From Escherichia phage vB_EcoM-LTH01: a DNA stretch of 64,000 bases. Under the pieces are notes generated by a model that did not search any database, was not told the DNA's origin, and saw only the letters and a list, made by a program, of their open reading frames with translations. Positions within the stretch are counted from its first letter, which is position 1, and every line of letters begins with the position of its first letter. The stretch lies in the sequence record PP430345. The stretch is one strand, 5' to 3'. A program made the position numbers and the translations under genes. Below are positions 225 through 64,000 of this stretch, piece after piece.

Positions 225-700
225 AAATGAAACTGAAATTTGAAAAACCCCTCAAGTATCTGGCCTGTAGCTCAAGTTCTCAATTTAAAATGCAAACTCA
301 AAAATGAAAAACCTCTCAAGTTCCTAATCTCTGTATCGAAAAACCTCTCAAGTTCTCGTGCACAGCTTTCAGGTTACGATCTGAAAAATGAAAAACCCCT
401 CAAGTTCTCAAATTATTTTGGTCACTGGTGTTGTATGTTTGCTTTGTATCATAGGTATACTGGAACAGTAACGTATTGAATCTGGATGGTGAGTCTGTAA
501 GAGGGGCATCAACTAAGTTGATCTAGTGGTGCAGGTATGCAGGAATGACACAGTATGGATGGGGCACGGTGGCAGGAGTCTTAAATTTATCTCAAATAGA
601 ATTTCAAATTGAAATCTGAAAATCCCCCATGAAACAAATATCACAGGGAAATATCTCAAATAGATTTTGGATCTGAAATCTGAATTTGTTTCAGCGAGCA
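225..700. repeat. Repeat-rich non-coding region: four copies of GAAAAACC(C/T)CTCAAGT (241-260, 306-324, 338-357, 390-410) and two copies of ATCTCAAATAGA...ATCTGAA (589-624, 653-688); candidate origin, packaging or regulator-binding array
   Basis: Direct repeats read in the sequence; no convincing ORF; lies beyond the 3' end of the minus-strand block. Confidence 0.6.
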
Positions 701-704
701 AATA

Positions 705-1523
705 TCACTCGTTAAAGAGTGTGTACAGGTCGAACGAAACATCCCCATTCACAGCTTTGAATAGTTGGATCTCTTCTTCTGTTGGGGAAAGCCAGTCTTC
801 AAAGAAAGTTTTAAAGTCCTCCTCTTTAAATGACTTACCCATTTTACTATCCCCTGTTGCGAAACGGATATAGTTTACTAGTTTAAATTTCTGATCTCTT
901 TCTTTACCAAAGAGGATGCTCTCTTTTGTCCAGTTGTTATGGACCATCAAGGAACCATCACAAAAGATATTTAACGTAACTGAAGTATCTTTCTTACCTA
1001 CCCGATTGATGTAACGAGTAAGGGAATCTTTCTCATACTCCCAGACAAAAGCCAGACTACCGAATGCTTTTTTGGATTTAAGATAGGCTAAAGGAAACTG
1101 ATCTACACAGGTATGATCAGCCCTTACAAAACCAGGGTCCATGCTGTCAGTAGCGTCAGCTATTTGGCTGAGTAAGGTTATTGCCTTGTCATCATTTATC
1201 GGGTCTTTTGATGAAGGATCAAAAGCTTCATCAAGAATACGCGATACCTTAGTGCGGTACTCATGAAACTTCGTGATTAGCGCCTCTGACTTTTCAATAT
1301 ATTCTTGAACAGAATCATCAGTATCAAGTTCACGGATCAAGTCTTTCAATCCGTGCACAGCACTTTCAATCTCCTCATTCTCTAGATCTCTTAAAGTGTA
1401 CTCTGCATTCCTGATCATTGTTTTATGATCAAGTGGAGTAGGTGATTGCAAACCATGAGGATTGGTAATATTCATCGGGACAACTTCATAAATGATTAGT
1501 GGGTCAAATTTACGGTAGGCCAT
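705..1523 (-). CDS. hypothetical protein (272 aa)
   Basis: Long ORF in the minus-strand block; no recognisable motif. Confidence 0.65.
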   Translation of the reverse strand: MAYRKFDPLIIYEVVPMNITNPHGLQSPTPLDHKTMIRNAEYTLRDLENEEIESAVHGLKDLIRELDTDDSVQEYIEKSEALITKFHEYRTKVSRILDEAFDPSSKDPINDDKAITLLSQIADATDSMDPGFVRADHTCVDQFPLAYLKSKKAFGSLAFVWEYEKDSLTRYINRVGKKDTSVTLNIFCDGSLMVHNNWTKESILFGKERDQKFKLVNYIRFATGDSKMGKSFKEEDFKTFFEDWLSPTEEEIQLFKAVNGDVSFDLYTLFNE

Positions 1524-10464: not shown

Positions 10465-10721
10465 TGTTAGATCTTATTGTTGGTGTTTTTAGTGCTGACG
10501 TACAGTTTTCAGTGTTTGTTGTGGTTCTTACTGGATTAGGATTGATCGGTTTTGCATTTGTAAGAACTCTTTATAAATATTTCAAAATCGCCTCTGATTT
10601 TTACAAAGGTAAACGTACAAAGCTGAAGGCTTATCACTTTATCTCAGGGTTTGTTGATCTATACTTTCTGATCATTGTTCCTCAGGTAATTTATCACGTT
10701 GTTTCTTTAATTTTTAGTTGA
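10464..10721 (+). CDS. small membrane protein (85 aa)
   Basis: Two hydrophobic helices. Confidence 0.5.
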   Translation: MLDLIVGVFSADVQFSVFVVVLTGLGLIGFAFVRTLYKYFKIASDFYKGKRTKLKAYHFISGFVDLYFLIIVPQVIYHVVSLIFS

Positions 10722-10746
10722 CACCATATCAAGGGTCATGTAATAT
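10718..10746 (+). promoter_or_regulatory. sigma70-like promoter TTGACA-N17-TAATAT, followed by the CCTATCAAAACAAA element
   Basis: Hexamers read directly upstream of the 10777 gene. Confidence 0.5.
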
Positions 10747-10776
10747 GGCCCTATCAAAACAAACAAGGGGAAATAA

Positions 10777-11139
10777 ATGACTAAATCAAACAAGCATCCA
10801 GTAATCTTTAAAATTGCAGATCTTATTAAAGACGAGGCAGAATGGCAGCGATTCAAAGAATACGTTGAACGAGATATCAAATTGTACGGCCTTGATGCAA
10901 TATTTATCGAGCAAATGTCAGCAGTGGAGTATGTTAAGATCTCCAACGAAGAAGTTGAAAGCAAAATGGTAGAGATTTATAAACTGTCAAAACAGAACGG
11001 TATCACAGGGCATTATTATGGTAAACGTGCAGCTTTGAAAACGGCGCTTTATACTTTTATGTATACTAGAAACATCGATCCTAAAATTATTGAAGAGATT
11101 ATTGTTAAGCCACATGAAGAAGAAAAAGGTAATAAGTGA
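10777..11139 (+). CDS. hypothetical protein (120 aa)
   Basis: ORF with AAGGGG ribosome-binding site. Confidence 0.6.
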   Translation: MTKSNKHPVIFKIADLIKDEAEWQRFKEYVERDIKLYGLDAIFIEQMSAVEYVKISNEEVESKMVEIYKLSKQNGITGHYYGKRAALKTALYTFMYTRNIDPKIIEEIIVKPHEEEKGNK

Positions 11140-26792: not shown

Positions 26793-26865
26793 TAACCTAG
26801 CCGAAGGGTAATACCTCCGGCTGGGCTTTGTTTTAGTCTAGTTGGAGTTTAAAGAAGGAGAAAAA

Positions 26866-29202
26866 ATGAAAGGCTTATTTATTGGAGATGCGGAAGCTAA
26901 CGGCCTGTTGACAGAGGTTGATCTCATTCACTGCGTCCTGTTTAAAGAGTATAAAAAAGATAACTGGAACATCTTTCTTGATCCCCAACGGGAAGGTTAC
27001 GATCAAGCTGTTAAATTTATCCAATCTAAAGGTAAAAACTTTAAGATTCGCACTATTGAAGAATTAAACGAATGGTTTGTCACAGAGCCTAAGGCAATTG
27101 CTATCCACAACATCTTCGGCTATGACCTCCAGTTGTTTAAGAAGATGCTAGGAACAACTTACGATATGTTTGCAGACCCTGGTTGCATGGGGACGATCAA
27201 TGGTAAACAAGTAACCATCTTCGATACACTTTCAATGTCCCGTACATTGTATCCAGATCGCCCTCTGCCTCGCGGTTGTCCTGAGATGGTAAAGAACCCC
27301 GTCACAGGTAAAATGAAGCCTGTAGGGCCACACGGGCTTGAAGCTTGGGGTATGCGAGTAGCCAACCAGAAAGTGGCGATTGAAGATTGGCGTGGCCTTC
27401 CACTTTGGAAGTATTGCGATCGTATTATTGAAGACGTAATTATCAACGAAATGGTGTGGGATGCTCTGATGAAAGAGATCTCTTGTGAATCTATGCCGGA
27501 TGATAAACGCTTCATGTATAAGGATGAAACAGACAAAGATCAGAAGAAGTATAAAATGATCAACTGGAAGAATGCCCTGCGTCGAGGTATGTTGACTGAC
27601 TACCTGATGATTGAGCAAGAAATTCAAGGTGTTTCATTTGATGAAGAAAAAGCACTCAAGCTTCGTGATCGTATCGATAAGATGATGACTGACATTGAGT
27701 TAGAGGTTGAACCTAAGTTGCCGAAGAAAGAGATGTCGAAATCAGCACAACCGACATTCCCATCCAAACCTTTCAAGGGCGATGGCTCTCTTTCCGGTAC
27801 AGGTTGGAAATGGTTAGAGAAGTTAGGTTATAATATCAATTGGGAAGCCTTGGAATTTAAAGGTGCACCAAGTAAGCCGTTTAAGGCTGACGGATCTCTT
27901 ACTGCCGCCGCGATCAAGTATTGTGTTGAACACGGTGTAGAAGATGAATCCAAAATGGGTGATTTTATCCGTGCACAAAACGTTAAGCAGCAAGGGCTTG
28001 TTCCTTTGCCGCCGGAAGATATGGCTCGTGCTTTGATGGATATCAAAGAACAAAAGATGCCGGACATTATGATCCCGATGCGTATTGGTAACCAGGACGA
28101 CGTTAAGAAGTTCCTGATCCGTGATGCAGGGTGGATTCCAACAATTTGGCGTACAAAGGATGCAACTAAAGATCAGTTCAAGAAACAACGTCCAGATAGT
28201 GAGGTTGACCTGATTGTTCGTCAATATATTGAAGATTTGGATCAGACAGAGTATCGGGATTTGATTCTGAAAAGCTTATCGATCACCCCTAAACAGTGGT
28301 CCGATAAAGAAAAGATGTTCAAGTTCTTCCGTAAGAAAGCCCGTGCATTACCAACATCTCCACAACTTAAGGATCAGCAGGGTCTTTGCCCTAACCTTGA
28401 GCGAGTAGATGGTGAAATGGCTAAACAGATTGTTAAATGGCTGTCTTTACGTAACCGACGATCTGTTCTTGACCCACTGAAAGAAGAGAAGGTTGATACC
28501 GGATGGCTTAACCATCCACGTCTACGAGTTGACGGTAAACTTCCGGCCCGTTATAGTGGAATAACTAACACAGGTCGTCGTAAGCATACGATCGTAGCAA
28601 ACGTACCTAAGCCGGATGAGAAAGTTCTTCTCGGTAAAGAGATGCGTGAACTGTTTAGAGCCTCCGAGGGTAAATATCAGGTAGGTATCGACGGTTCAAA
28701 CTTGGAAGGTATGATCGCGGCATGGGGCGCGTATGATTTCGATGGTGGCGCTTATCTTCGTATCATGGAATCTGGAGATGCTCACTCCCGAAACGCAGAA
28801 GCGTATACCAAAGCGGCAGGGAAGAAGGTTTCTCGTGGTGAAGGTAAAGGTGTGACATACGGAATTATGTACGGGGCACAGGCAGCGAAGATTGCATCAA
28901 TGCTGGGGATCACTCTTGAGAAGGCCCAGGCAGTAATCGACGCATTCTGGGATAGCAACATCGGCTTGAAAGGTCGTAAAGAAGCATTAGAGAAGTTTTG
29001 GGAAGCTAACGGTAAGCGATTCATCTACGGTCTTGATGGACGTAAGATCTACACTCGTTCCAAACACTCATTGCTTAATGCTTATCAGCAGAATGGTGGT
29101 GCTGCACTGTTTGACTTGGTGGGTATCCTCCTGCACTGGCAGTTGGTCAAGAAAGGTTGGTATGATGAAGGCGTTAGACGTATTATCTATTACCATAAGT
29201 AA
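26866..29202 (+). CDS. family A DNA polymerase (T7 gp5 / Pol I-like), 5' exon; the ORF runs into the intron and stops at 29202, true splice junction unresolved
   Basis: AAGGAG then ATG at 26866; exonuclease-like FIGDAEANGL; motif B RGEGKGVTYGIMYGAQ; ...GLDGRK...LLNAYQQ..RRIIYYH aligns with the pre-motif-C region of Pol I/T7 polymerase (recalled from memory). Confidence 0.75.
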   Translation: MKGLFIGDAEANGLLTEVDLIHCVLFKEYKKDNWNIFLDPQREGYDQAVKFIQSKGKNFKIRTIEELNEWFVTEPKAIAIHNIFGYDLQLFKKMLGTTYDMFADPGCMGTINGKQVTIFDTLSMSRTLYPDRPLPRGCPEMVKNPVTGKMKPVGPHGLEAWGMRVANQKVAIEDWRGLPLWKYCDRIIEDVIINEMVWDALMKEISCESMPDDKRFMYKDETDKDQKKYKMINWKNALRRGMLTDYLMIEQEIQGVSFDEEKALKLRDRIDKMMTDIELEVEPKLPKKEMSKSAQPTFPSKPFKGDGSLSGTGWKWLEKLGYNINWEALEFKGAPSKPFKADGSLTAAAIKYCVEHGVEDESKMGDFIRAQNVKQQGLVPLPPEDMARALMDIKEQKMPDIMIPMRIGNQDDVKKFLIRDAGWIPTIWRTKDATKDQFKKQRPDSEVDLIVRQYIEDLDQTEYRDLILKSLSITPKQWSDKEKMFKFFRKKARALPTSPQLKDQQGLCPNLERVDGEMAKQIVKWLSLRNRRSVLDPLKEEKVDTGWLNHPRLRVDGKLPARYSGITNTGRRKHTIVANVPKPDEKVLLGKEMRELFRASEGKYQVGIDGSNLEGMIAAWGAYDFDGGAYLRIMESGDAHSRNAEAYTKAAGKKVSRGEGKGVTYGIMYGAQAAKIASMLGITLEKAQAVIDAFWDSNIGLKGRKEALEKFWEANGKRFIYGLDGRKIYTRSKHSLLNAYQQNGGAALFDLVGILLHWQLVKKGWYDEGVRRIIYYHK

Positions 29203-29917
29203 CATTGTGGCTTTGTGAGGTAACTCACATCGAAAACTCCTTTAATTGCTGGAAGACTAAGGTTGATATTAATTCAAGTGTGAGTTAGTATGAGACTATG
29301 TTAATCAGCAGCGAAGAGGATCATGTGGAATATAAAGATTATTTCGGTTACAAGGTTTATGAAGACGGGACCATTATAGGTCGTCGAGGGAAACCAATGG
29401 CGGCAGTTGATAATGGACGTGGGTATCTTATTGTAAGTCTGTATCTCAACAAAAGGACGACTACAAAGGCTGTTCACGTTTTGGTGGCAGAGTGTTTTGT
29501 ACCAAACCCTGAAGGTTTGCCGGAGGTTGATCATAAGTGGCCTGACAAAAGGAATAACCACTATTCAAACCTCCAATGGACAACTCGTGGTGGAAATATC
29601 AAGAAAACCTTTGCTGATAAATGTCGTTCAGCAACAGGGGTTGATAACGCCAGAAGTATAGTTACCGAAGAAGAGGTTAGAGAGATTTGCAACTTCCTGG
29701 GGCAAGGTTATGGAAGTGCACAGATTCGGGATATGGGTTATCCTTACAACGTGGTAAGGTCCATAAAAATCCGTAAAAACTGGACACACATCTCTTGTGA
29801 CTACACATGGTCCTAACGTTCAGAGACTAGCCGAGAGGCGTAGGCGAGCAAGTGCCGTCGAAATGGGGAGCATCCTGAAAAGGATGGTGATATAGTCCGA
29901 TCCATACGTGAAAACGT
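29203..29917 (+). mobile_element. group I self-splicing intron carrying an HNH homing-endonuclease ORF, inserted in the polymerase gene at or near motif C (boundaries approximate; the 3' end may lie as far as about 30116)
   Basis: After the HNH stop: GTTCAGAGACTA (J6/7-P7) ... GATATAGTCC (P7 3' strand) and a P9-like hairpin CCATACGTG-AAAA-CGTATGG, matching the conserved group I core as I recall it from the Tetrahymena and T4 td introns. Confidence 0.65.
29298..29816 (+). CDS. HNH homing endonuclease (intron-encoded)
   Basis: YKDYFGYKVYEDGTIIGRRGKP...GYLIVSLY...AVHVLVAECFVPNP..LPEVDHKWPDKRNNHYSNLQWTT is the typical free-standing HNH homing-endonuclease pattern; different frame from both polymerase segments. 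Confidence 0.75.
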   Translation: MLISSEEDHVEYKDYFGYKVYEDGTIIGRRGKPMAAVDNGRGYLIVSLYLNKRTTTKAVHVLVAECFVPNPEGLPEVDHKWPDKRNNHYSNLQWTTRGGNIKKTFADKCRSATGVDNARSIVTEEEVREICNFLGQGYGSAQIRDMGYPYNVVRSIKIRKNWTHISCDYTWS

Positions 29918-30268
29918 ATGGCAACATGTAATGATGTGGGCGAGAGTAACGACCTCGTTAAACTTTTGGATGAATACCAGCTTGAAGTGCCGCACAAGTT
30001 CAAAAAGACTTGGACCTTTGACAACGAAGCTGACGCGAAGAAATTTGTAGAAGCTTGCTTGGCTAAGAAAATGATCTTGGATGGTCATTGTGTGAAAGAA
30101 GGGAAGTTTAAGTGTGATCCTGATGAGAATGGAATCTACACGATCATGTATTGTCCAGTTGGAGAGATGGTTGTTCGTTGCGTAGAGCAAGCAGCACGAA
30201 TGATGAAATCTCCTGTACACATAACAGGTGAATACCTCACAGGGATGAACTGGGGGGCGTGCCACTGA
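29918..30268 (+). CDS. family A DNA polymerase, 3' segment (C-terminal palm region); real exon start unresolved (between about 29930 and 30117)
   Basis: C-terminus ...CDPDENGIYTIMYCPVGEMVVRCVEQAARMMKSPVHITGEYLTGMNWGACH aligns with the (H)DE...NW..AH C-terminus of Pol I and T7 gp5, including the terminal His. Confidence 0.6.
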   Translation: MATCNDVGESNDLVKLLDEYQLEVPHKFKKTWTFDNEADAKKFVEACLAKKMILDGHCVKEGKFKCDPDENGIYTIMYCPVGEMVVRCVEQAARMMKSPVHITGEYLTGMNWGACH

Positions 30269-30274
30269 TAATTT

Positions 30275-30304
30275 AAACCACCCTTCGGGGTGGTTTTCTT
30301 TTAT
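30275..30304 (+). terminator. rho-independent terminator after the DNA polymerase
   Basis: AAACCACCC-TTCG-GGGTGGTTT then TTCTTTT. Confidence 0.7.
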
Positions 30305-30317
30305 GTGCAAAAAGTTA

Positions 30318-30347
30318 TTGACAGGACATACCCACATCAACTAAGAT
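30318..30347 (+). promoter_or_regulatory. sigma70-like promoter TTGACA-N18-TAAGAT
   Basis: Hexamers directly downstream of the terminator, upstream of the paralog array. Confidence 0.5.
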
Positions 30348-30376
30348 GTATCCATCAACTGAAGAGGAGAACAAAG

Positions 30377-30748
30377 ATGGAAATCGGAAAGACTTATATT
30401 CTTAATAAAGACTTAGAAAAAGCTTTTATTAGTATGGACCCTAGCTACAATCAAGAATTGGCTGATCTTCTTTATAAACACGGTCCTAAATTTGTTGTCA
30501 ACACCACCCACGTTTATGATAATGTTACATACGTTAACAATGTCATATTTGAAGATGGTACTTTAGGTAGTGACAGTCTTCACGGCTGCGAAGGTAACAA
30601 GGGTGTATACTTTGAACTTGCAGAGAGTGAATTTCCCTTCTTTAAGGAAGTCGGGGAAGATGAAGACCCTATTATCCAGGTTGCCGTTTCTCGTGGTAAT
30701 GCACAAGAAACCGTAGACCTGATTAAAGCTACCTTTAACCTAGTATAA
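30377..30748 (+). CDS. small protein, paralog family member 1 (MEIGKTYILN...QETVDLIKATFNL)
   Basis: GAGGAG ribosome-binding site; shares N- and C-terminal motifs with the next two genes. Confidence 0.65.
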   Translation: MEIGKTYILNKDLEKAFISMDPSYNQELADLLYKHGPKFVVNTTHVYDNVTYVNNVIFEDGTLGSDSLHGCEGNKGVYFELAESEFPFFKEVGEDEDPIIQVAVSRGNAQETVDLIKATFNLV

Positions 30749-30759
30749 GGAGGACAAAA

Positions 30760-31119
30760 ATGCAAGTCGGTAAAACTTATAAACTTAATCCAAAATTCGT
30801 GGAAGAATTTATTAAGGCTGACCCAAGTTACAATCACGAGATTGTTTCTTTTCTGGATGAGCACGGGCCGCGATTTATTGTTAACAACATGAGCATGATT
30901 GAAGGTGATGAGTATGTTAATAACATCACAACAGAAGATGGTGCTGTAGGGTGTGATTCATTCAGTGTGGGCTGCGGGGCAATGTACTTTGAACTTCGTG
31001 AATCTGAGTTCAAATACTTTGAAGAGGTCAGCGACCTTAAAATTATTCAGGTATCTGTGTCAGACCGCAACGCACAAGAAACTATTGACCTGATCAAATC
31101 CACATTTAACTTACCATAA
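30760..31119 (+). CDS. small protein, paralog family member 2 (MQVGKTYKLN...QETIDLIKSTFNL)
   Basis: AAGGAGG ribosome-binding site; paralog of the flanking genes. Confidence 0.65.
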   Translation: MQVGKTYKLNPKFVEEFIKADPSYNHEIVSFLDEHGPRFIVNNMSMIEGDEYVNNITTEDGAVGCDSFSVGCGAMYFELRESEFKYFEEVSDLKIIQVSVSDRNAQETIDLIKSTFNLP

Positions 31120-31129
31120 GGAGATTGTT

Positions 31130-31519
31130 ATGATGCAAGTAGGAAAAACTTATATTCTCAACCCTCTGTATAAAGATGATTTTACCCGCAAGTACCTCGC
31201 AAACGACAAGATTTCAGATTTGCTAGAGCGGCATGGTCCCAGTTTCGTTGTAGACGAGTTAAAAACCTACAATCTTGAGAATAAATTTGTAGCCCGTGTA
31301 ACTCTAGAGGATGGTACTGTATCTTCTAGCAATATTGAAGATGATTTATTTTTTGAGGTTTATCCTGATGAATTCGAATACTTCACCGAGGTAACTTTAG
31401 AACAGCCCCAACCTATTGCCGAAGATACAGTTTCAGGTGTAGCAAAAGTTCATTGTGTTGTGGATGAAAACAACGTCGATGAAATCATCAAACTTTTGCA
31501 AAAAACTTTTAAAAAGTAG
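31130..31519 (+). CDS. small protein, paralog family member 3 (MMQVGKTYILN...)
   Basis: AAGGAG ribosome-binding site; N-terminal motif shared, C-terminus more diverged. Confidence 0.65.
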   Translation: MMQVGKTYILNPLYKDDFTRKYLANDKISDLLERHGPSFVVDELKTYNLENKFVARVTLEDGTVSSSNIEDDLFFEVYPDEFEYFTEVTLEQPQPIAEDTVSGVAKVHCVVDENNVDEIIKLLQKTFKK

Positions 31520-31530
31520 TATACAAGCGG

Positions 31531-31566
31531 ATAGGACTATGTTATAGTAGTCCTATCAAAACAAAT
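31531..31566 (+). promoter_or_regulatory. perfect 10-bp inverted repeat GATAGGACTA-N8-TAGTCCTATC followed by CCTATCAAAACAAA; operator or stem-loop upstream of the 31579 gene
   Basis: Palindrome read in the sequence; the same CCTATCAAAACAAA 14-mer follows the promoter at 10741-10765. Confidence 0.45.
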
Positions 31567-31578
31567 GAGGAGAACAAA

Positions 31579-31905
31579 ATGAAAAGCAGCCCACAACTTC
31601 TGAATTTCTACCAAGAATATAAAAAATGGTTAGATATCGGTGCACCAAAAGATGGTGCTTTTTACCGAGGCGCTGGCCTTTGTTTTAATTTGTCCTCATT
31701 CCTGGGTAAAAATGATCCAGACATGAAAGTGCAATTCGAAATGAAGAATCAATTCTTTGATGCGGGTCTTAACACCGAAACACCTTTTGATTTTGATTTT
31801 GACGAATATGCCCATCATGGTTCAAAAGGTAAATCTTACCTCAACATTTATCGTCGTGGTTGGGTAGAAGATCGAATTCGCGACATGGAGAATACACATG
31901 AGTAA
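31579..31905 (+). CDS. hypothetical protein (108 aa)
   Basis: ORF with GAGGAG ribosome-binding site. Confidence 0.6.
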   Translation: MKSSPQLLNFYQEYKKWLDIGAPKDGAFYRGAGLCFNLSSFLGKNDPDMKVQFEMKNQFFDAGLNTETPFDFDFDEYAHHGSKGKSYLNIYRRGWVEDRIRDMENTHE

Positions 31906-32164
31906 TCTGGCAGTTACAGCGATTGTTAAATATGACTTGTTTCCTCGTTATCGGGTGATCAAAGGCCGACTGCTGCCAAATGGTAATGTTCAACTTATCG
32001 GATCAACGTCCTACATGAAGGCAGAGCACATTATTCGTATTCTTCCACTCGACCAGTTCGATGAAGAAGAAAAGAAAAAGGATAAACTTGTTTCCGATTA
32101 TCGTGAAAAAGAACTTAAATTAAGACTTGACTTGTTGGAACAAGCTGGTGTAGACTATATCTAA
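31898..32164 (+). CDS. hypothetical protein (88 aa)
   Basis: ORF. Confidence 0.55.
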   Translation: MSNLAVTAIVKYDLFPRYRVIKGRLLPNGNVQLIGSTSYMKAEHIIRILPLDQFDEEEKKKDKLVSDYREKELKLRLDLLEQAGVDYI

Positions 32165-32187
32165 CTTGAAACGAAGAGGATAATATA

Positions 32188-32454
32188 ATGTCAGAAAAAA
32201 CTTTAGTTGGTATTGAAAAAGCTTTCATCGAATCTTTTGATGGGTGGGATGAAATTGATTGTGGGGTGATGTATTTTTACGACGTTGTGTTAAAAGAAGA
32301 ATATAAGCATCTCGTACCAGAAGGAACTGCCTCTGTAGGTATGGCTGTTAGTTCGACTGAGAGCTATGTCCAATTTAATTTCTTCGACAAGGACGACAAA
32401 GCTACAACAAAAGCTTTCGAGATTAATCTTACTTTAGGTAAAGAAAAGTTATAG
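32188..32454 (+). CDS. hypothetical protein (88 aa)
   Basis: ORF with AAGAGGA ribosome-binding site. Confidence 0.55.
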   Translation: MSEKTLVGIEKAFIESFDGWDEIDCGVMYFYDVVLKEEYKHLVPEGTASVGMAVSSTESYVQFNFFDKDDKATTKAFEINLTLGKEKL

Positions 32455-32475
32455 ACTACCGAGGGGAATAAATAA

Positions 32476-32733
32476 ATGAAATTTTACTCAGCAAAACATA
32501 AATTTAGCGGTGAATTTGTTTCATTTTGGCAGACTGCCGACGATGATGGTTTTGTACATACAAAATTAAGTCTTTCTAATAACGAAAGGGACACACCTTT
32601 TGTGACCTCGTTAGAACAGGTAGCCAAACTGATCAAAGGTAATCTTAACAATGATTGGTCTATTATTGTATACGATGAGCTTAAGGAAGCTGTTGAAAAT
32701 TCAATGCTTGAAATCGTAGTAATTGATATCTGA
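32476..32733 (+). CDS. hypothetical protein (85 aa)
   Basis: ORF with GAGGGG ribosome-binding site. Confidence 0.55.
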   Translation: MKFYSAKHKFSGEFVSFWQTADDDGFVHTKLSLSNNERDTPFVTSLEQVAKLIKGNLNNDWSIIVYDELKEAVENSMLEIVVIDI

Positions 32734-32915
32734 TGAAAGTCAAAATCTTAGAATCAAAGACCAAACTGCTTGAGCAACTTAAGTATTACGGTGTCCAAAA
32801 AGATTCAATTCTTTTCGTGACAAAAGAAAGCGCGTCTGGTACTATTATTGCGAATAAGGGCAAGGGCTATCAATTTATGCTCTTGAAAGATGAATACGAA
32901 ATAGTTGAAGAATAG
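32733..32915 (+). CDS. hypothetical protein (60 aa)
   Basis: ORF. Confidence 0.45.
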   Translation: MKVKILESKTKLLEQLKYYGVQKDSILFVTKESASGTIIANKGKGYQFMLLKDEYEIVEE

Positions 32916-32923
32916 GAGTCACC

Positions 32924-33160
32924 ATGTGGCCTTTTAAAAAGAAAGAAACTGAAGAAAACAAACCAAGTTGTAAACATGATTTTGTCATTACTCAATGTAA
33001 TCAAGTTACAAAGGTAATGTCTCGCTTCTACGATACAGAAGAGATCAAGACAACAGTTGTGTCACGTATTTGTCGGCAATGCCTTGTACAAGAGGCTCAC
33101 ACTGTTCCAGGTCACATTGATTATTCTAAAGCTTTAAATATTTTTGGAGGTACTCGATGA
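32924..33160 (+). CDS. hypothetical Cys-containing protein (78 aa)
   Basis: ORF with AGGAG ribosome-binding site. Confidence 0.5.
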   Translation: MWPFKKKETEENKPSCKHDFVITQCNQVTKVMSRFYDTEEIKTTVVSRICRQCLVQEAHTVPGHIDYSKALNIFGGTR

Positions 33161-33543
33161 GTTTATCAAAAAATAGAAAAGAGTTTAATGAATTTATTGA
33201 CAGCTTGGCAGGAAAGCCTTATATTAATGCCATCGTCTCTAAATATCCTTTGGCGCATCTGACCTTTGTTCCAGAAAAGCGATTGTACCAACTGGAAGAG
33301 GATGAAGTATTTTGCTGTACGTGCGGTTGTGGTGAGGTAAAACCTATTATGGTCCCTTACCCAACATTGAGTGTTGTATCACATACCGACGGACTGGAGG
33401 AGGCAGTAATCCACGGTTTTTGGGTATCACCTTGTAAACAAAAAAGTTCTTTTGATGATGAAGGTATTGTTGAATACTATGACATTGAAGTATTCAATGA
33501 TAAAACTGGTGAAATTGTTAAAGTGGAGATCAATTACGAATGA
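33157..33543 (+). CDS. hypothetical protein (128 aa) with CCTCGCG cluster
   Basis: ORF. Confidence 0.55.
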   Translation: MSLSKNRKEFNEFIDSLAGKPYINAIVSKYPLAHLTFVPEKRLYQLEEDEVFCCTCGCGEVKPIMVPYPTLSVVSHTDGLEEAVIHGFWVSPCKQKSSFDDEGIVEYYDIEVFNDKTGEIVKVEINYE

Positions 33544-33857
33544 AAATTGTATGGGGTTTTACTAAAATAATCTTTATGATCCTGTGCCTTGCTGTACTAA
33601 ACCCACATCGTTTACTGCTGGCCTTGATTCACCTTTTAGCTGCAATATTTAGTTTTATCGCTTGGCGACTAGAAGACCTCGCGGGCTTTATGGGGAAGTG
33701 CGTTAAGAAAGGCATGAAGAAATTCTGGCTTTTTGGTGAGAAGTTATTATCTGAGCCTTTACATAAGGAAATCGAAAAGCTGGATATTATTTTGAAGGCC
33801 GCAGAAAAGAAACTCAATCCGAATAATGTTGACAAGGAAAAGGATGATGGTGTATAA
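33540..33857 (+). CDS. membrane protein (105 aa)
   Basis: Hydrophobic N-terminal helices. Confidence 0.55.
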   Translation: MKIVWGFTKIIFMILCLAVLNPHRLLLALIHLLAAIFSFIAWRLEDLAGFMGKCVKKGMKKFWLFGEKLLSEPLHKEIEKLDIILKAAEKKLNPNNVDKEKDDGV

Positions 33858-34050
33858 AGTATTCTGCGAATGGGATATTGGTCAAGAAGGTATTGCATTT
33901 GTTTCAGAAAAGGCAGCACTCAATTGGATAGAGGGTCAAAAAGATATTCTTCTGTCTGACATTGATGAGACTATAAAAAGTCTTATGAAGCAACGTCTTT
34001 TAGTTATTGAGCCACTAATTGTTATTGATGAAAAAGGAGAAAGAGTATGA
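33826..34050 (+). CDS. hypothetical protein (74 aa; start uncertain)
   Basis: ORF. Confidence 0.45.
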   Translation: MLTRKRMMVYKVFCEWDIGQEGIAFVSEKAALNWIEGQKDILLSDIDETIKSLMKQRLLVIEPLIVIDEKGERV

Positions 34051-34655
34051 TCAAGAAGTTTGTTGCTTGGGTAAAATCGCTGTTTATTCCTCTGGAAGTA
34101 GAAACTGCGGCGATCGACAAGTATATTGCAAAGCAGGCCGAACAGCGTAAGGAGACTGAAAGCGTTAAATTCGGCCCAGTTGAAACACGCGATCTGGAAG
34201 AACCATTAAAAGAAAATGAGGTATTGGTTGGGGTAAACATCAAAGATAAGACGATGAAGGTTGTTGATATCTCTGTTGAACGACCAAAATCACAGGCTAC
34301 GCCGCCGAAACCGTTGGATGAACAACTGAAGGGTGTTGAATTACCGTCCTATGCTCAAGGTAAGAAATTACCACCGAAGGCAAAGCGACAGTATATTGAT
34401 CAGGCCCGTCGGGCAGCACCACGTAAGATGAGCGACTCTCCAAATGGGTATGGAACTAGCCAGGTTGATCCTCAGGTGGCAGCTTTAGGTGGTGTGGCAA
34501 CGTATACTGCTGTAATGTCCTCCAGTGAAGATCGTACAAGTAGTTCAAGTTCTCACTGTTCTTCAAGTCGGTCAAGTTCGTATGATAGCTCATCATCGTA
34601 TGATAGTTATTCTTCTGATAGTAGCAGCAGTAGTTCTTCAAGCAGTTGTGATTGA
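34047..34655 (+). CDS. hypothetical protein (202 aa) with a Ser-rich low-complexity C-terminal tail
   Basis: Last ~46 residues (from SSSEDRTS to SSSSSSCD) are about 70% Ser, with Tyr/Asp interspersed. Confidence 0.6.
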   Translation: MIKKFVAWVKSLFIPLEVETAAIDKYIAKQAEQRKETESVKFGPVETRDLEEPLKENEVLVGVNIKDKTMKVVDISVERPKSQATPPKPLDEQLKGVELPSYAQGKKLPPKAKRQYIDQARRAAPRKMSDSPNGYGTSQVDPQVAALGGVATYTAVMSSSEDRTSSSSSHCSSSRSSSYDSSSSYDSYSSDSSSSSSSSSCD

Positions 34656-59153: not shown

Positions 59154-60851
59154 TTAATAGACATTACCGGTTTGAATAGTTTGTGTAGCTCCGTCAAAAA
59201 TACAAATAGAATATATTGACAATCTCCCACCTGTGTCACTTGAAGAAGATTTATTCATCGTTGCTGTTATCCAAACCCTCCAACAACTTCCGTCGTTATT
59301 GTCTGTAACAACAAGGTGCATTGTATCTGGATACCCTACAGTCGCCGACGCATTTTCAACATAAGCAACAGTATTGCTCAATGTTGCATTACTTACCCTC
59401 CCTGTTTTTATTCTATTAATATCCGTGTAGTTAGCCGTCAAGTACCATCCAAAATTTATTTGTCTGGAAGAAGACGATGTTCCTGCGGAGAAACCTACCT
59501 TAACTTGACTAGCCAAACCTGCGGCGTCAATAATAAGCCTTACATTACCATTATTAGTACCGGGTAAAGGTAACCACATTTTTTTAGTCCCAGTAGGTGT
59601 ATTATAAACCCCAGCTAAGGTAGGAGTAGCAGCTGGACCTACATCTCCTTTATCCCCTTTGTCCCCTTTCTCGCCCTTAGGACCTTGAGGGCCTATCATA
59701 CCTGCCGGACCTTGTGGTCCAATAGCACCTGTCTCCCCCTGAGGGCCAGTCGGACCCCTGATACCCTGAGGGCCAGCTATGCCTTGAGTGCCTTGAGGGC
59801 CTGCTGGGCCGATATCTCCTTTATCTCCCTTAGGACCTTGCGGACCCTCTGGGCCAGTTGGTCCTGCATCACCCTTCACTCCCTGGGGACCTTGTGGACC
59901 TTGAGGACCAGTCGGACCTATATTACCTTGAGGGCCAGTTGGACCCGTTGCACCAATTGGACCTTGAGGACCTTCAGGGCCTGCTGGACCTTCAGCGCCT
60001 ATATCCCCTTTAGGTCCTTGTGGTCCCATAGGACCCTGAGGTCCTTCAGCACCTTGATCACCTTTGGGACCAACAGCGCCTGCAATCCCCTGAATACCCT
60101 GGGGACCCTGAGGGCCTGTTGGCCCTTGTTCCCCCCTTGCACCTTGATCACCTTTTGGACCCTGCGGTCCTTGTGGACCTGTTGGCCCTTGAGATCCTTC
60201 TAAGGCTAAGATAACCCAATCTTCATTTGTACCAGGTTCTGAGCCAATACTGGCAGAACTGGCAAAATACGTTGAACCATTGTAAGAAACCGAATCATTT
60301 TCAGAATAAGATTCCTCAGCGTCCCAAGTACCTTTGAAAGTCAAACCAGCAGGGCCAACCTCACCTTTTTCCCCTTTAGGGCCTGTAAGTCCGATCGGTC
60401 CTTGCGGACCTTCTGCTCCAGTCTCACCCTTAGGACCTTCAGGGCCAACAAGTCCCTGAGGACCTTGCTCACCTTTTTGTCCTTGTGGCCCTTGCGGACC
60501 CATAGGTCCTTGAGGGCCAACAATACCAGCTGCCCCCGCTATACCTGCGGGACCTTGTTCTCCTTTATCACCCTTAGGACCTGTAAGGCCACGGACACCT
60601 TCATCTCCTTTGGGACCAATAGGACCTTGCGGTCCAATATCCCCTTTTGGACCCTGAGGGCCAGCAGGTCCAACTGGACCTTGTTCTCCCTGAGGTCCGC
60701 GAGGACCAGTGTTACCAACATCACCTTGTTCTCCGACACGGGAAAACAAATCTTTAAACAAATACCTCTTTCTTGCATTAAGATCGTAAACGGCAGTCCC
60801 GAAATAAACCCCGCTGTGATCTCCCGTAATACCTTTAGCTGTAGAAGGCAT
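59154..60851 (-). CDS. collagen-like fibre protein (565 aa) with an embedded carbohydrate-binding-like module and a C-terminal globular domain
   Basis: Long Gly-X-Y tracts ([20 protein letters not shown]...), interrupted by [39 protein letters not shown] (W...Y..GD.V.YNG..Y...W pattern), then ~150 aa without collagen repeats. Confidence 0.7.
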
Positions 60852-61547: not shown

Positions 61548-64000
61548 TTAACCTATAGTCATTGCTTGAGTACCCGTCAGGAACTCACCATCCCAGAACA
61601 AGGTCAGGATAGTGCGAGTAGCCCCGAGAGTAGGTGCTGTTCCGTTAGACCAAGCGATCTGGCTATCCCAGTTAATCTGACCACCGTTACCAGTGAATCG
61701 TAAGACTATGGTTTTAGCCCTTCCTGCTGGCAATCCGGTGATGACTAAGGATTTGTTGGTAGTCCCATCTAAAGTCCAAGCGTTACCTGTGCTTGCATCA
61801 ATTGCCCCTGTAGAAGCAACAACACGCAAATCGTACTGGTCCAGCTTAACCCATGCGCCGTTTTCACGAACATAGAACCCACCTTCCAGCGGTGCTTCCA
61901 GAACTGGAACCGTCAATGTAGACCAAGCACCATCTTTACGGACGTACTGGTTACCATCACGAGGTGCTTCCAGAACTTCTGCGGTAGGCAGTTCAGTCCA
62001 ATCACCGTCGGTACGGACATACAGCTTTCCGTCCCCTGGTGCGTCATACACGTTACCACCACCTAAGAATCCGAGCAGTGCCCAGTTCGTTGCGGAAGTT
62101 TTACGGTAATATTCCAGAGTGGAAGAGTTCAGGTACAAATCGTTAAGACGACCATCGCTAACCATCGGTGCACGAGGGAAAACAACCCACAATGTACCTT
62201 GATCACCTTTAGCACCTGTCGGACCAGAAGGGCCTTGCGGACCTTGGTTACCCGTTGGACCAACTGGTCCTACTGGACCTTGGATACGTCCTAAGTTTTC
62301 GTATGCTGCACCAGTCCAACCCCAGAAGTCACCTTGGATAAGATAACCTTGACCCAAAGTACCAGTTGAAGGTAATTCATCAGAGGTATCAAATCGACCA
62401 ATGATCTCTACACCAGGACCAATATCTCCCTGAGGACCTTGCTCACCCTGTGGGCCTTGGTCGCCTTGTGGTCCTACTTCACCACGTTCACCCTGAGGAC
62501 CTTGCTCCCCTTGTGGCCCTGTGGCTCCAGTATCACCTTTGTCACCTTTAGCGCCAGTCAATCCCTGAGGGCCCTGAGTACCCTGAGGACCTTGCTCCCC
62601 TTGTGGGCCACGGGCAACCCCAGCCTCTACAAAAGCAGTTCCGTCGAAAGCGTAACCGATCCCAGTGTCGTCTGTGACATAGAAATCACCTACAGCACCA
62701 GTTTGAGGAAGGTCTGCTTGAGATGGTACAGTTCCTTTAGGGATCAGGCCAGAGCCAACATCCCCCTTGTCGCCTTTGTCTCCTTTTGCACCAGTTTCAC
62801 CAGCAGGTCCTTGTGGTCCTTGGTCACCCGTAGAACCTTTCTCACCTTGTGGACCTTGAGGACCAACTTCTCCTTGAGGGCCGACCTCACCCTGCGGTCC
62901 GCGAACGGTTCCGGCAGAAACGAATTCCACGCCATCCCAAGCGTAACCGATCCCAGTGTCTTCAGCTACGTAGAAGTCACCTAATTCAGCAGTAGAAGGA
63001 AGTTCAGCGGAGGTTGCAACCAAACCTTTCAGCTTCAGTGCATCACCTGCGTCGCCTTTGTCTCCTTTGTCTCCTTTCTCACCAGTGTCGCCTTTGTCGC
63101 CCTTCAGACCCTGAGGTCCACGAGTAAGACCAGTCAGTACCCATGCAGTGCCATCCCAAGCATAACCATTACCTTCAGACTCTACAACGTAGAAGTCACC
63201 AGTGGTGGCATCGGCAGGAAGTGCTTCTTGAGTTGCAACAATACCACGAGCAACGATACCAATTCCAGTATCACCCTTATCACCCTTATCGCCCTTGTCA
63301 CCTTTTTCGCCAGTCTCACCCTGTGGACCAATACCACCTTGTGGACCAGTCTCACCTTGGGGGCCAGCAGGACCTTGTGCCCCTGTTGCACCCTGCGGTC
63401 CTTGTGCACCAGTCAGACCAATAGGACCTTGTGGACCTTGTGGTCCTACATCCCCTTGGGGACCTTTGATGTTACCAACGTTAGTCCACTGACCGCCAGT
63501 AAAGATATAAAGATCAGCTTCAATCAGATAAGCATCACCTTCACTAATACCAGTCTGAGGCAATTGGTCTTCGGAAGCTACTGAGCCAAGGATATTCAGA
63601 CCCGCACCAACAGGACCTTGTTCACCTTGTGGACCAGTTAATCCACGAGGGCCAGTTGCACCCACGTCACCTTTTTCACCCTTCAAGGTTGCAAGGTATT
63701 CATTAACTGAACCTTCGAAACCGTTAGCAACCGCGATAGTGTAGTTGTCGTCTCCTTTATCGCCTTTATCGCCTTTGTCCCCTTTATCGCCTTTATCACC
63801 CTTAGCACCAACTGGGCCTTGTGGGCCTTGGAAAGATCCCAAATCTTCCCAGTTACCAGTACCATCAGAAACGAAGACATTAGTTCCGATCAGGTAAGCA
63901 TCACCCGCATCAGCACCTGCTGGCAAACTTGCTTCATCGGCAACAGAACCTAAGATATTAATAGCGTTAGCATTCTTACCGTCAACACCAGGTTCACCCT
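61548..64000 (-). CDS. collagen-like modular fibre protein, 5'-partial (N-terminus lies beyond the window end)
   Basis: Frame stays open to position 64000; at least five repeats of a ~25-aa module (LP.TG..GD.Y......Y.W.G..W...G...GP.G) alternating with Gly-X-Y tracts; non-collagen C-terminal domain. Confidence 0.7.

Follow-up and report, generated by a model that had tools for sequence, protein, structure and literature searches.

The three consecutive genes downstream of the DNA polymerase gene of Escherichia phage vB_EcoM-LTH01 are true paralogs and members of the already catalogued Frd.2 family (PF03197, PHROG 622, T4 frd.2). As a whole, the array is probably best explained as three Frd.2-family genes of a Septuagintavirus that were acquired horizontally and would encode early, acidic binding modules. 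It is located in a variable early region directly 3' of the intron-split polA of this Septuagintavirus (Vequintavirinae) coliphage; the last DNA polymerase exon spans 29918-30268 and copy 1 begins 109 nt past the polymerase stop. The preliminary description had placed three ORFs here, and their lengths were confirmed (coordinates and strand in Table 1). As had also been described, each gene has its own ribosome-binding site: Shine-Dalgarno sequences were found at all three starts (GAGGAG at 30364-30369 for copy 1, AAGGAGG at 30747-30753 for copy 2 and AAGGAG at 31118-31123 for copy 3), with a spacing to the start codon of 7-8 nt in every case. A GTG start at 30290, which would extend copy 1 to a 152-aa ORF, was rejected since the family alignment favours the ATG at 30377, and an ORF on the - strand (30580-30864) that overlaps copies 1 and 2 was treated as spurious. 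An HMM of the three copies, run against the 526 ORFs of the window, did not detect any further Frd.2 paralog, and an Rfam scan inside the array found no RNA family.

Table 1 Features of the Frd.2 array and its flanks in the window (the whole 64-kb stretch of DNA that was analysed)
Feature	Position	Strand	Properties or basis
Intrinsic-terminator-like hairpin AAACCACCC-TTCG-GGGTGGTTT with a trailing T run	30275..30296	+	terminator scan
Sigma-70-type promoter-like site TTGACA-18 nt-TAAGAT	30318..30347	+	promoter scan, 10/12 matches
Copy 1, Frd.2-family protein	30377..30748	+	123 aa, pI 4.4
Copy 2, Frd.2-family protein	30760..31119	+	119 aa, pI 4.4
Copy 3, Frd.2-family protein	31130..31519	+	129 aa, pI 4.5
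T-even similarity island (about 81% nucleotide identity)	31296..31582	+	megablast, blastn, alignments
Conserved intergenic element	31520..31578	+	promoter scan, RNA fold, conservation

Copies 1 and 2 are about 52-53% identical (BLASTP, E = 2.6e-41), copy 3 is about 32% identical to copy 1 or 2 (BLASTP, E = 4e-18), and both values exceed the limit of about 20% identity that had been set for paralogy. Local alignment scores among the copies lay 24-51 sd above those of 500 shuffles. The motifs from which the relationship had been noticed were found again, HGP(K/R/S)F(V/I)V in all three copies and NAQET(V/I)DLIK(A/S)TFNL in copies 1 and 2. The N-terminal motif (M)QVGKTY(I/K)LNP is shared as well, with a small departure in copy 1, which reads EIGKTY...LNK (N-termini of copies 1, 2 and 3: MEIGKTYILNK, MQVGKTYKLNP and MMQVGKTYILNP).

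Membership in the Frd.2 family was evident from profile searches. PF03197 ("Bacteriophage FRD2 protein", Pfam gathering score 29 bits) matched copies 1, 2 and 3 with 62.6 bits (E = 5.8e-17), 72.5 bits (E = 4.9e-20) and 97.3 bits (E = 8.8e-28), respectively, and was the sole Pfam match at E <= 0.1; NCBIfam gave no matches to the copies. PHROG 622 was matched with E-values of 5.5e-20, 6.3e-20 and 1.5e-31 over nearly its entire profile. The copies have the full-length architecture of the family, with its length class of 112-138 aa and its motifs, an N-terminal GK-x-Y, a central G-x-F-x-V, YFE-x-x-x-x-EF-x-x-F and a C-terminal N-x-x-E-x-I-x-L-I-x-x-x-F. In an alignment of 35 family members Y7, N25, F39, E83, F87, N104 and F116 were invariant and M1, F17, G36, Y76, F77, E78, F84, V100 and I109 nearly so. 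The family is small: an exhaustive HMMER search of 1.84 billion proteins recovered only 40 clusters at 50% identity. This search was required to find the family, as copy 2 had retrieved nothing but its ortholog in phage A73 when a word-indexed protein search was used. T4 Frd.2 (NP_049852) has the Pfam and PHROG family, length class, motifs and acidic charge in common with the copies, as well as the predicted architecture of an SH3/LSm-like barrel, a linker and a C-terminal helix. Overall identity of the copies to T4 Frd.2 is only 33-37%, but at the C-terminus copy 3 and T4 Frd.2 are almost the same over ~28 residues (SGVAKVHCVVDENNVDEIIKLLQKTFKK and SGVTKIHCIVDENNVDEIIELLRKTFKK, respectively). 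T4, a member of the Straboviridae, carries a single frd.2 after gene 32 and frd.3, whereas in this member of the Vequintavirinae three genes follow polA. The position between gene 32 and frd that is typical of T4-like phages is thus not found here; it is a feature of the context and has no bearing on family membership.

The preliminary description had called the array a tandem triplication. A tandem paralog array it is, but a simple triplication was rejected, because a neighbour-joining tree (without bootstrap, of proteins of about 120 aa) and the identity matrix both paired copy 1 with copy 2 and put copy 3, which belongs to another Frd.2 subclade, with the Mosigvirus type. Judged from these alignments, copies 1 and 2 are sister duplicates. 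They probably arose when a unit of one gene and its ribosome-binding site was duplicated once in tandem at this locus; an 82-nt repeat comprising the 3' end and the ribosome-binding site is 73% identical between them (family D10). Copy 3 is probably a distinct paralog type, part of which was replaced in LTH01 through recombination with an allele of the T-even type. Its identity to the counterpart in the five closest relatives is only 50%, against 55-60% to Mosigvirus-type Frd.2, and its sequence combines Septuagintavirus-type with T-even (Mosigvirus)-type segments, which makes it a mosaic allele. The island of T-even similarity spans its 3' half plus the downstream intergenic element; megablast matched this range to >200 T4-like records and blastn to phage G53. 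Since no T-even DNA similarity was detected further downstream (31583-34050), the island that was transferred comprises no more than copy 3 and its 3' element.

All five of the closest genomes (A73, W70, UPEC06, A5-4 and A7_1, about 94% nucleotide identity) contain the three-gene array. Copy 1 orthologs in A73, A5-4, UPEC06 and A7_1 are 90-95% identical, and the copy 3 protein matched a vB_EcoM-LTH01 protein with 100% identity. In Certrevirus CR9 and CB7 the split polymerase is present but FRD2 genes are absent from the syntenic site after it; absence from other Vequintavirinae was judged from these two genomes plus sampled hit lists. The other matches listed or evenly sampled (548-866 matching records in a collection of 50,697) came from T4-like genomes or fragments, and in T4-like phages frd.2 is always located between gene 32, encoding the single-stranded DNA-binding protein, and frd/td/nrd. 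Tandem pairs occur there too: Dhakavirus JS10 has frd.2a and frd.2b, and a search of metagenomes with the three-copy alignment found only three IMG/VR loci, and IMG/VR locus L011 carries two copies. Like the array described here, those of JS10 and L011 consist of diverged tandem Frd.2 paralogs with short spacers, but they have two copies instead of three and lie downstream of gene 32 in T4-like genomes. Copies 1 and 2 are nearest to the frd.2a type (42-45% identical), and in L011 a Mosigvirus-type copy is followed by one whose C-terminus resembles copy 3 of A73. Taken together with the relationships among the copies, we are fairly confident that Septuagintavirus received Frd.2 from T4-like coliphages by horizontal transfer, that copies 1 and 2 are tandem duplicates and that copy 3 is separate and partly overwritten. 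The direction of transfer is suggested only by the distribution, and no donor for copy 3 closer than 60% amino acid identity was found.

Both flanks of the array carry hairpins and promoter-like sites, and these coincide with breakpoints between close relatives. The upstream hairpin is predicted to terminate transcription of the DNA polymerase unit. The same hairpin occurs in A5-4, similarity to which breaks off at 30297, and it marks the left breakpoint of an indel between the two phages; in A5-4 and A7_1 an insertion between 30297 and 30362 adds three or four ORFs after the polymerase gene and ahead of copy 1. The promoter-like site that follows has an equivalent in A5-4 (TTGACA-16-TATGAT, 11/12 matches). 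Promoters and terminators were called from consensus matches only, and promoter-like sites were not more numerous in the region than in shuffles, so that the upstream site alone is not strong evidence. The same scan detected no terminator-like sites within the array. The hairpin and the predicted promoter could form a stem-loop/early-promoter unit that drives the array, and co-transcription of the three genes from this sigma-70-like promoter past the polymerase terminator would make them early genes, like T4 frd.2.

The intergenic element downstream of copy 3 contains a promoter-like site (TATACA-17 nt-TATAGT, 31520-31548) and, overlapping with it, a hairpin with a perfect 10-bp stem (GATAGGACTA/TAGTCCTATC, 31530-31557); the hairpin is followed by CCTATCAAAACAAATGAGGAG, which carries the ribosome-binding site of the next gene (ATG at 31579). 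The predicted RNA fold has an energy of -16.9 kcal/mol (z = -4.0). The element is kept in A73 and A5-4, and it is also found downstream of frd.2 in T4 and G53, where the G53 hairpin shows one compensatory pair change from A-T to G-C. An additional ORF is located immediately before it in A5-4. In the window only one further similar element was found (10717-10777). The element is the right breakpoint of the copy 3 replacement, which ends at about 31501-31520, and the right-hand junction of the overwriting event would thus fall inside a promoter/hairpin element common to T-even phages. Recombination at the flanking elements is inferred from these coincidences.

Such an arrangement resembles the PeSL (promoter-early stem-loop) cassettes known from T4-type phages (PMC2839356, PMC4122927), in which a stem-loop stands beside a sigma-70-like early promoter, a Shine-Dalgarno sequence and a start codon. 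Both array flanks match this description, and each falls precisely on a breakpoint at which close relatives differ by an indel or a replacement. PeSLs, however, have been described only within T4-like genomes, the hairpin of the 3' element lies across the -10 hexamer instead of preceding the promoter, and dispersed similar copies amount to only two in the window. The Frd.2 genes and their flanking stem-loop/early-promoter elements may be viewed as one mobile cassette that recombines between Straboviridae and Vequintavirinae, with the paralogs as specificity variants of a host-takeover or anti-defence binder for a variable E. coli target; we regard this as rather improbable. If true, modular shuffling of the PeSL type would reach beyond T4-like phages.

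To describe the proteins themselves, structures were predicted with AlphaFold2. The models of copy 2 (pLDDT 91.6, pTM 0.78) and copy 3 (pLDDT 87.7, with a disordered linker at residues 94-100) predict a fold of an SH3/LSm-like barrel, a linker and a C-terminal helix that matches the published Frd.2 architecture. Frd.2, GoF and MotB.1 have been described as a T4 early-protein family with LSm-like N-terminal domains (Kim et al. 2025, PMC12152347). Indeed, a Foldseek search of BFVD retrieved 53 viral proteins at E <= 1e-3, among them T4 MotB.1 (P39415, E = 5.8e-4) and a GoF (E = 7.1e-4), and hhalign over residues 1-92 gave probabilities of 72% for GoF and 68% for MotB.1. GoF and MotB.1 resemble the copies in a related N-terminal barrel and in being acidic early proteins, but they are separate sequence families with C-terminal domains different from that of Frd.2, and the sole functional datum for them, RNA stabilisation, was obtained with a gain-of-function mutant of GoF, not with Frd.2. 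A search of PDB by sequence gave chance matches only (none better than E = 0.5) and Foldseek found nothing below E = 0.1 there. The best PDB neighbours were FeoA and the C-terminal SH3-like domains of DtxR/IdeR, together with the Tudor-like RNA-polymerase-binding domains of CarD and UvrD/PcrA, which have the topology of a small five-stranded SH3-like barrel in common with the copies. None of these structural matches is strong enough to assign a function. Each of the 40 family members examined was acidic (median pI 4.5, net charge -2 to -19), the three copies having net charges of -11 to -12.

Neither an activity nor a partner has been demonstrated for any Frd.2-family protein and, therefore, a mechanism can be argued from fold, charge and analogy only. 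On these grounds we tentatively propose, at somewhat less than even odds, that the copies are small, acidic, non-enzymatic binding modules. The SH3/LSm-like beta-barrel with the invariant YFE-x-x-x-x-EF-x-x-F, the linker of variable length and the C-terminal helix would form the module, which early in infection would bind a host or phage protein of nucleic-acid transactions and not RNA directly; the paralogs would differ in partner specificity or simply raise the dosage. In T4, a frd.2 amber mutant plates normally (PMC12152347), and in a CRISPRi-ART screen frd.2 was the sole "Fit" gene of unknown function (PMC11879866), with a marginal score of 0.83 (p = 0.027).

The preliminary description had suggested that such arrays are often diversifying host-interaction or anti-defence genes. 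Diversifying selection was rejected: ortholog dN/dS was 0.04-0.31 for all three copies (pairwise Nei-Gojobori, five genomes), well below 1, and the orthologs are under purifying selection. That the paralogs inhibit variable host defences or host factors and are swapped among co-infecting coliphages to track their hosts is unlikely, although several observations fit. These are accessory genes, located in a variable early region and exchanged between unrelated lineages with E. coli as host; phages differ in having one, two or three copies, and a mosaic allele has replaced copy 3 in this phage. The dN/dS values of copies 1 and 2 are somewhat above those of most neighbouring genes (0-0.12). The proteins are small and acidic, as are several known protein or DNA mimics. 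The absence of a plating defect of the frd.2 amber mutant on laboratory strains would fit a conditional need (PMC12152347), but the CRISPRi-ART result points to a small fitness cost in the laboratory host. Neither the sequence nor the fold searches linked the copies to a known anti-defence protein; no match to a defence-related or any functional family was found in PADLOC or NCBIfam, and PADLOC, a library of defence proteins, yielded nothing meaningful, its single match being at chance level.

For the three copies to act as LSm/Hfq-like RNA chaperones, their N-terminal barrel would have to bind RNA directly, with the paralogs stabilising or remodelling particular phage or host transcripts. The LSm-like fold predicted for Frd.2, GoF and MotB.1 (PMC12152347) was reproduced in our models, weak Foldseek matches included the Edc3 LSm domain and ribosomal small-barrel proteins, and GoF(D25Y) causes post-transcriptional stabilisation of a gene 41 leader-reporter RNA (PMC12152347). 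Yet this reporter assay showed no effect of wild-type GoF or MotB.1 and is not reported for Frd.2 (PMC12152347), and the family is strongly acidic (pI of the copies about 4.4). Pfam gave no LSM or Hfq profile match, and a close Sm-fold structural match and a basic RNA-binding surface were not found. From Pfam, fold neighbours and acidic charge, a bona fide Hfq/Sm protein was rejected, and direct action on RNA by a barrel of this type seems decidedly doubtful.

Gene neighbourhood might suggest accessory factors of replication or nucleotide metabolism, with the phage replisome or the complex for dNTP synthesis as binding partner: frd.2 keeps its place between gene 32 and frd/td/nrd in T4-like phages, the array described here adjoins the DNA polymerase gene, and acidic proteins could bind DNA-binding partners. 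But both sites are variable regions, bounded by regulatory elements, in which unrelated small ORFs come and go, and the linkage to replication genes may therefore be incidental. Furthermore, the array has its own predicted promoter past the terminator-like hairpin, the structural matches do not carry a function and the T4 amber mutant shows normal plating (PMC12152347); a role of this kind is very unlikely. Finally, that the motifs are shared by chance or the ORFs are non-coding, so that they would not be related functional genes, is practically impossible and was refuted by alignment (E-values of 4e-18 to 3e-41, with scores as far beyond shuffles as given above), by Pfam matches above the curated cut-off, by conserved orthologs under purifying selection in five other genomes and by confident fold predictions, with no support found in its favour.

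In sum, the locus is apparently a tidy case of gene exchange between T4-like and unrelated E. coli phage lineages and not a new kind of system. The array leaves knowledge of how the family works unchanged and, therefore, its practical value is modest. Frd.2 is among the most conserved T4 early genes still without a function, and the presence of three diverged copies outside T4-like phages, under purifying selection, indicates that the protein can function without the genetic background of T4. The Septuagintavirus phages, together with the natural allele variants of copy 3, offer a second and simpler system for a partner search, and the shared promoter/hairpin at the junction is a small, concrete case of regulatory elements as exchange points between unrelated phage families.

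The three ORFs of 123, 119 and 129 aa, each with its own ribosome-binding site, that the preliminary description had placed just downstream of the DNA polymerase were indeed found at 30377-31519 on the + strand; the polymerase gene ends at 30268 and copy 1 starts at 30377. The spacers amount to 11 nt (copy 1 to copy 2) and 10 nt (copy 2 to copy 3). The motifs quoted for the three proteins were all recovered, the sole correction being the N-terminus of copy 1, which reads MEIGKTYILNK. BLASTP revealed 52% identity between copies 1 and 2 (E 2.6e-41) and ~32% between copy 3 and either of them (E 4e-18), both above the ~20% below which the shared motifs were to be put down to chance, and the pairwise alignment scores were 24-51 standard deviations over those of 500 shuffles. 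All three copies matched Pfam PF03197 "Bacteriophage FRD2 protein" above the curated threshold (63-97 bits, cut-off 29) and PHROG 622 end-to-end; they belong to the catalogued family that includes T4 frd.2. A protein of Escherichia phage vB_EcoM-LTH01 matches copy 3 with 100% identity. Searching the window with an HMM of copies 1-3 gave no additional paralog.

Features of the Frd.2 array, its surroundings and further elements of the window
Feature	Position	Strand	Remarks
Clustered short direct repeats	233-407, 588-708	+	non-coding, near left end
Second promoter + hairpin element	10717-10777	+	TTGACA-17-TAATAT; AGGGTCAT/ATGGCCCT stem overlaps -10 hexamer
Family A DNA polymerase gene (polA)	26842-29202, 29918-30268	+	5' of array
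Group I intron splitting polA	29187-29920	+	Rfam RF00028, full-length match
HNH endonuclease ORF	29298-29816		in 497-nt insertion of the intron
Terminator-like hairpin	30275-30296	+	directly 3' of polymerase
Promoter-like site	30318-30347	+	TTGACA-18-TAAGAT, near-consensus sigma-70; between hairpin and copy 1
Copy 1	30377-30748	+	123 aa; Shine-Dalgarno present
Copy 2	30760-31119	+	119 aa; Shine-Dalgarno present
Copy 3	31130-31519	+	129 aa; Shine-Dalgarno present
Promoter-like site		+	TATACA-17-TATAGT, 3' of copy 3; overlapped by 10-bp hairpin
Perfect 10-bp hairpin	31530-57	+	-16.9 kcal/mol, z = -4.0; followed by ribosome-binding site of next gene
Serine-tailed ORF	34047-34655	+	202 aa
Collagen-like-repeat proteins	59154-60851, 61548-63926	-	565 and 792 aa

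The array is not the simple triplication initially described. A neighbour-joining tree (40 members, no bootstrap) placed copies 1 and 2 as sisters with the frd.2a type as nearest relative (42-45% identity) and copy 3 with Mosigvirus-type (T-even) Frd.2, to which it is 55-60% identical. A direct-repeat search recovered the 5' ends of all three genes, and copies 1 and 2 share an 82-nt repeat comprising the 3' end and the ribosome-binding site, which fits a duplicated unit of gene plus spacer. Between this phage and its relatives, identity is 90-97% for the orthologs of copies 1 and 2 but only 50% for copy 3, in each of the five. Codon-window comparison demonstrated that copy 3 is a patchwork: codons 1-10 and ~36-55 follow the relatives' allele (73-100% nucleotide identity), and codons ~11-35 and 61-129 follow the T-even one, with identity reaching 93-97% at the 3' end. 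Nucleotide similarity to the relative A73 ends at 31320 and restarts at 31501, and 31296-31582 matched >200 T-even records at ~81%. Both allele types of copy 3 occur side by side in one T4-like phage, the IMG/VR contig L011 (641-1451): its first Frd.2 gene belongs to the Mosigvirus type, as does the C-terminus of copy 3 in the window, and the C-terminus of its second resembles copy 3 of A73 (...FEVTTENARDVIAEIKEIFGIK).

The repeat search was dominated by 9-nt periodic families because of two proteins with abundant collagen-like Gly-X-Y repeats, which are presumably tail fibres or fibre-like proteins. The left-end repeats comprise four copies of ~27 nt (CTSAAAAATGAAAAACCYCTCAAGTTC) and two of 57 nt; they may represent iterons, promoter arrays or terminal-repeat features.

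The Frd.2 family is small: HMMER, run exhaustively against 1.84 billion representative proteins, yielded only 40 clusters. Within the phage collection, the genomes closest to the window are A73, W70, UPEC06, A5-4 and A7_1 (~94% nucleotide identity); they are assigned to Septuagintavirus, subfamily Vequintavirinae (PMC12942863), and in all five the three genes recur in identical order. In the Certrevirus phages CR9 and CB7 the polymerase is likewise split, with unrelated small ORFs 3' of it. By tblastn, each copy matched 548-866 of 50,697 phage records; besides the five relatives, the matches listed, even samples down the ranking included, were only T4-like genomes or fragments. T4 has a single frd.2, between gene 32 and frd. 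Dhakavirus JS10 carries frd.2a and frd.2b in tandem and L011 two Frd.2 genes in tandem 3' of gene 32, and thus Frd.2 arrays are an already known feature of T4-like phages. Since Frd.2 is near-universal there and apparently restricted to one genus within Vequintavirinae, transfer from T4-like phages to Septuagintavirus appears the parsimonious reading.

Putative regulatory elements flank the array on both sides, and no terminator-like site was found within it by the scan; judged from these signals, one early transcript would cover the three genes. The promoter/hairpin element 3' of copy 3 is kept in A73 and A5-4 and also 3' of frd.2 in T4 and the T-even phage G53, whose stem has one compensatory base-pair change; the genes behind it have no DNA in common with T-even phages. 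Small ORFs, three in A5-4 (locus L002, 3452-4403) and four in A7_1 (locus L007, 1828-3353), are inserted exactly in the interval from the polymerase terminator to the copy 1 ribosome-binding site, and A5-4 has an additional ORF between copy 3 and the shared element (L002, 5552-5794). Whole small ORFs are therefore gained or lost among close relatives, which locates the array in a hyperplastic region. With stem-loop/promoter elements and ORF insertions or junctions, both flanks resemble the PeSL (promoter-early stem-loop) cassettes, for which a role in the modular shuffling of T4-type phages has been proposed (PMC4122927). The only similar element elsewhere in the window, at 10717-10777, is followed by the same leader as 3' of copy 3 (CCTATCAAAACAAA...GG..A..AAATG) and may be part of a small family of early regulatory cassettes.

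The RF00028 match to the polymerase intron (E 2.3e-9, 42.9 bits) is under the gathering score of 50. The same interruption is found in A73, A5-4 and CR9; the polymerase is uninterrupted in UPEC06 and A7_1, and that of CB7 is split into three pieces, each of the two gaps containing an HNH gene.

All three copies are under purifying selection, with ortholog dN/dS of 0.04-0.31 (pairwise Nei-Gojobori; synonymous sites are saturated between paralogs), so the diversifying evolution suggested earlier found no support at the whole-gene level. Against A73, copies 1 and 2 gave 0.18 and 0.31; most neighbouring genes evolve somewhat slower (0-0.12) and one similarly (0.26). The 202-aa ORF at 34047-34655, whose C-terminal tail is extremely rich in serine (...SSSSSSHCSSSRSSSYDSSSSYDSYSSDSSSSSSSSSCD), is kept in A73 with a dN/dS of 0.06.

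AlphaFold2 with the family alignment gave confident models of copy 2 (pLDDT 91.6, pTM 0.78) and copy 3 (pLDDT 87.7; linker residues 94-100 disordered). The predicted order is strand, two helices, small beta-barrel, short helix bearing the conserved E-x-EF residues, linker and C-terminal helix. Foldseek found no significant match in the PDB; among viral models it found 53 proteins at E <= 1e-3, including T4 MotB.1 and a GoF, and all named ones were from T4-like phages. By hhalign, the N-terminal 90 residues matched T4 GoF with 72% and MotB.1 with 68% probability. These results reproduce the published description of GoF/MotB.1/Frd.2 as a family whose N-terminal domain is LSm-like, with SH3 topology (PMC12152347).

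T4 frd.2 is an early gene whose amber mutant plates normally (PMC12152347), and its CRISPRi-ART knock-down scored marginally for fitness (0.83, p = 0.027; gene 32: 3.3) (PMC11879866). Copies 1-3 would act as early, non-enzymatic binding modules. Every one of the 40 members examined is acidic (median pI 4.5; net charge of copies 1-3, -11 to -12) and the nearest folds are protein-binding SH3/Tudor-type barrels, not Sm rings, which favours protein binding; binding to a nucleic-acid-metabolism protein of host or phage is tentatively preferred over three other roles. Anti-defence is unlikely, if the best placed of these. Direct RNA chaperoning is rather less probable: reporter RNA was stabilised by the mutant GoF(D25Y) only, not by wild-type GoF or MotB.1 (PMC12152347), and the acidity and barrel type just named speak against it. 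A replication accessory role is the most doubtful.

GenBank already lists the genes of the relatives as hypothetical proteins, and tandem frd.2 paralogs are annotated in T4-like phages. Modestly new are the presence of the Frd.2 family outside T4-like phages, as three conserved copies, the mosaic of one copy with T-even sequence, and the mosaic junction inside a regulatory element common to different phage families.
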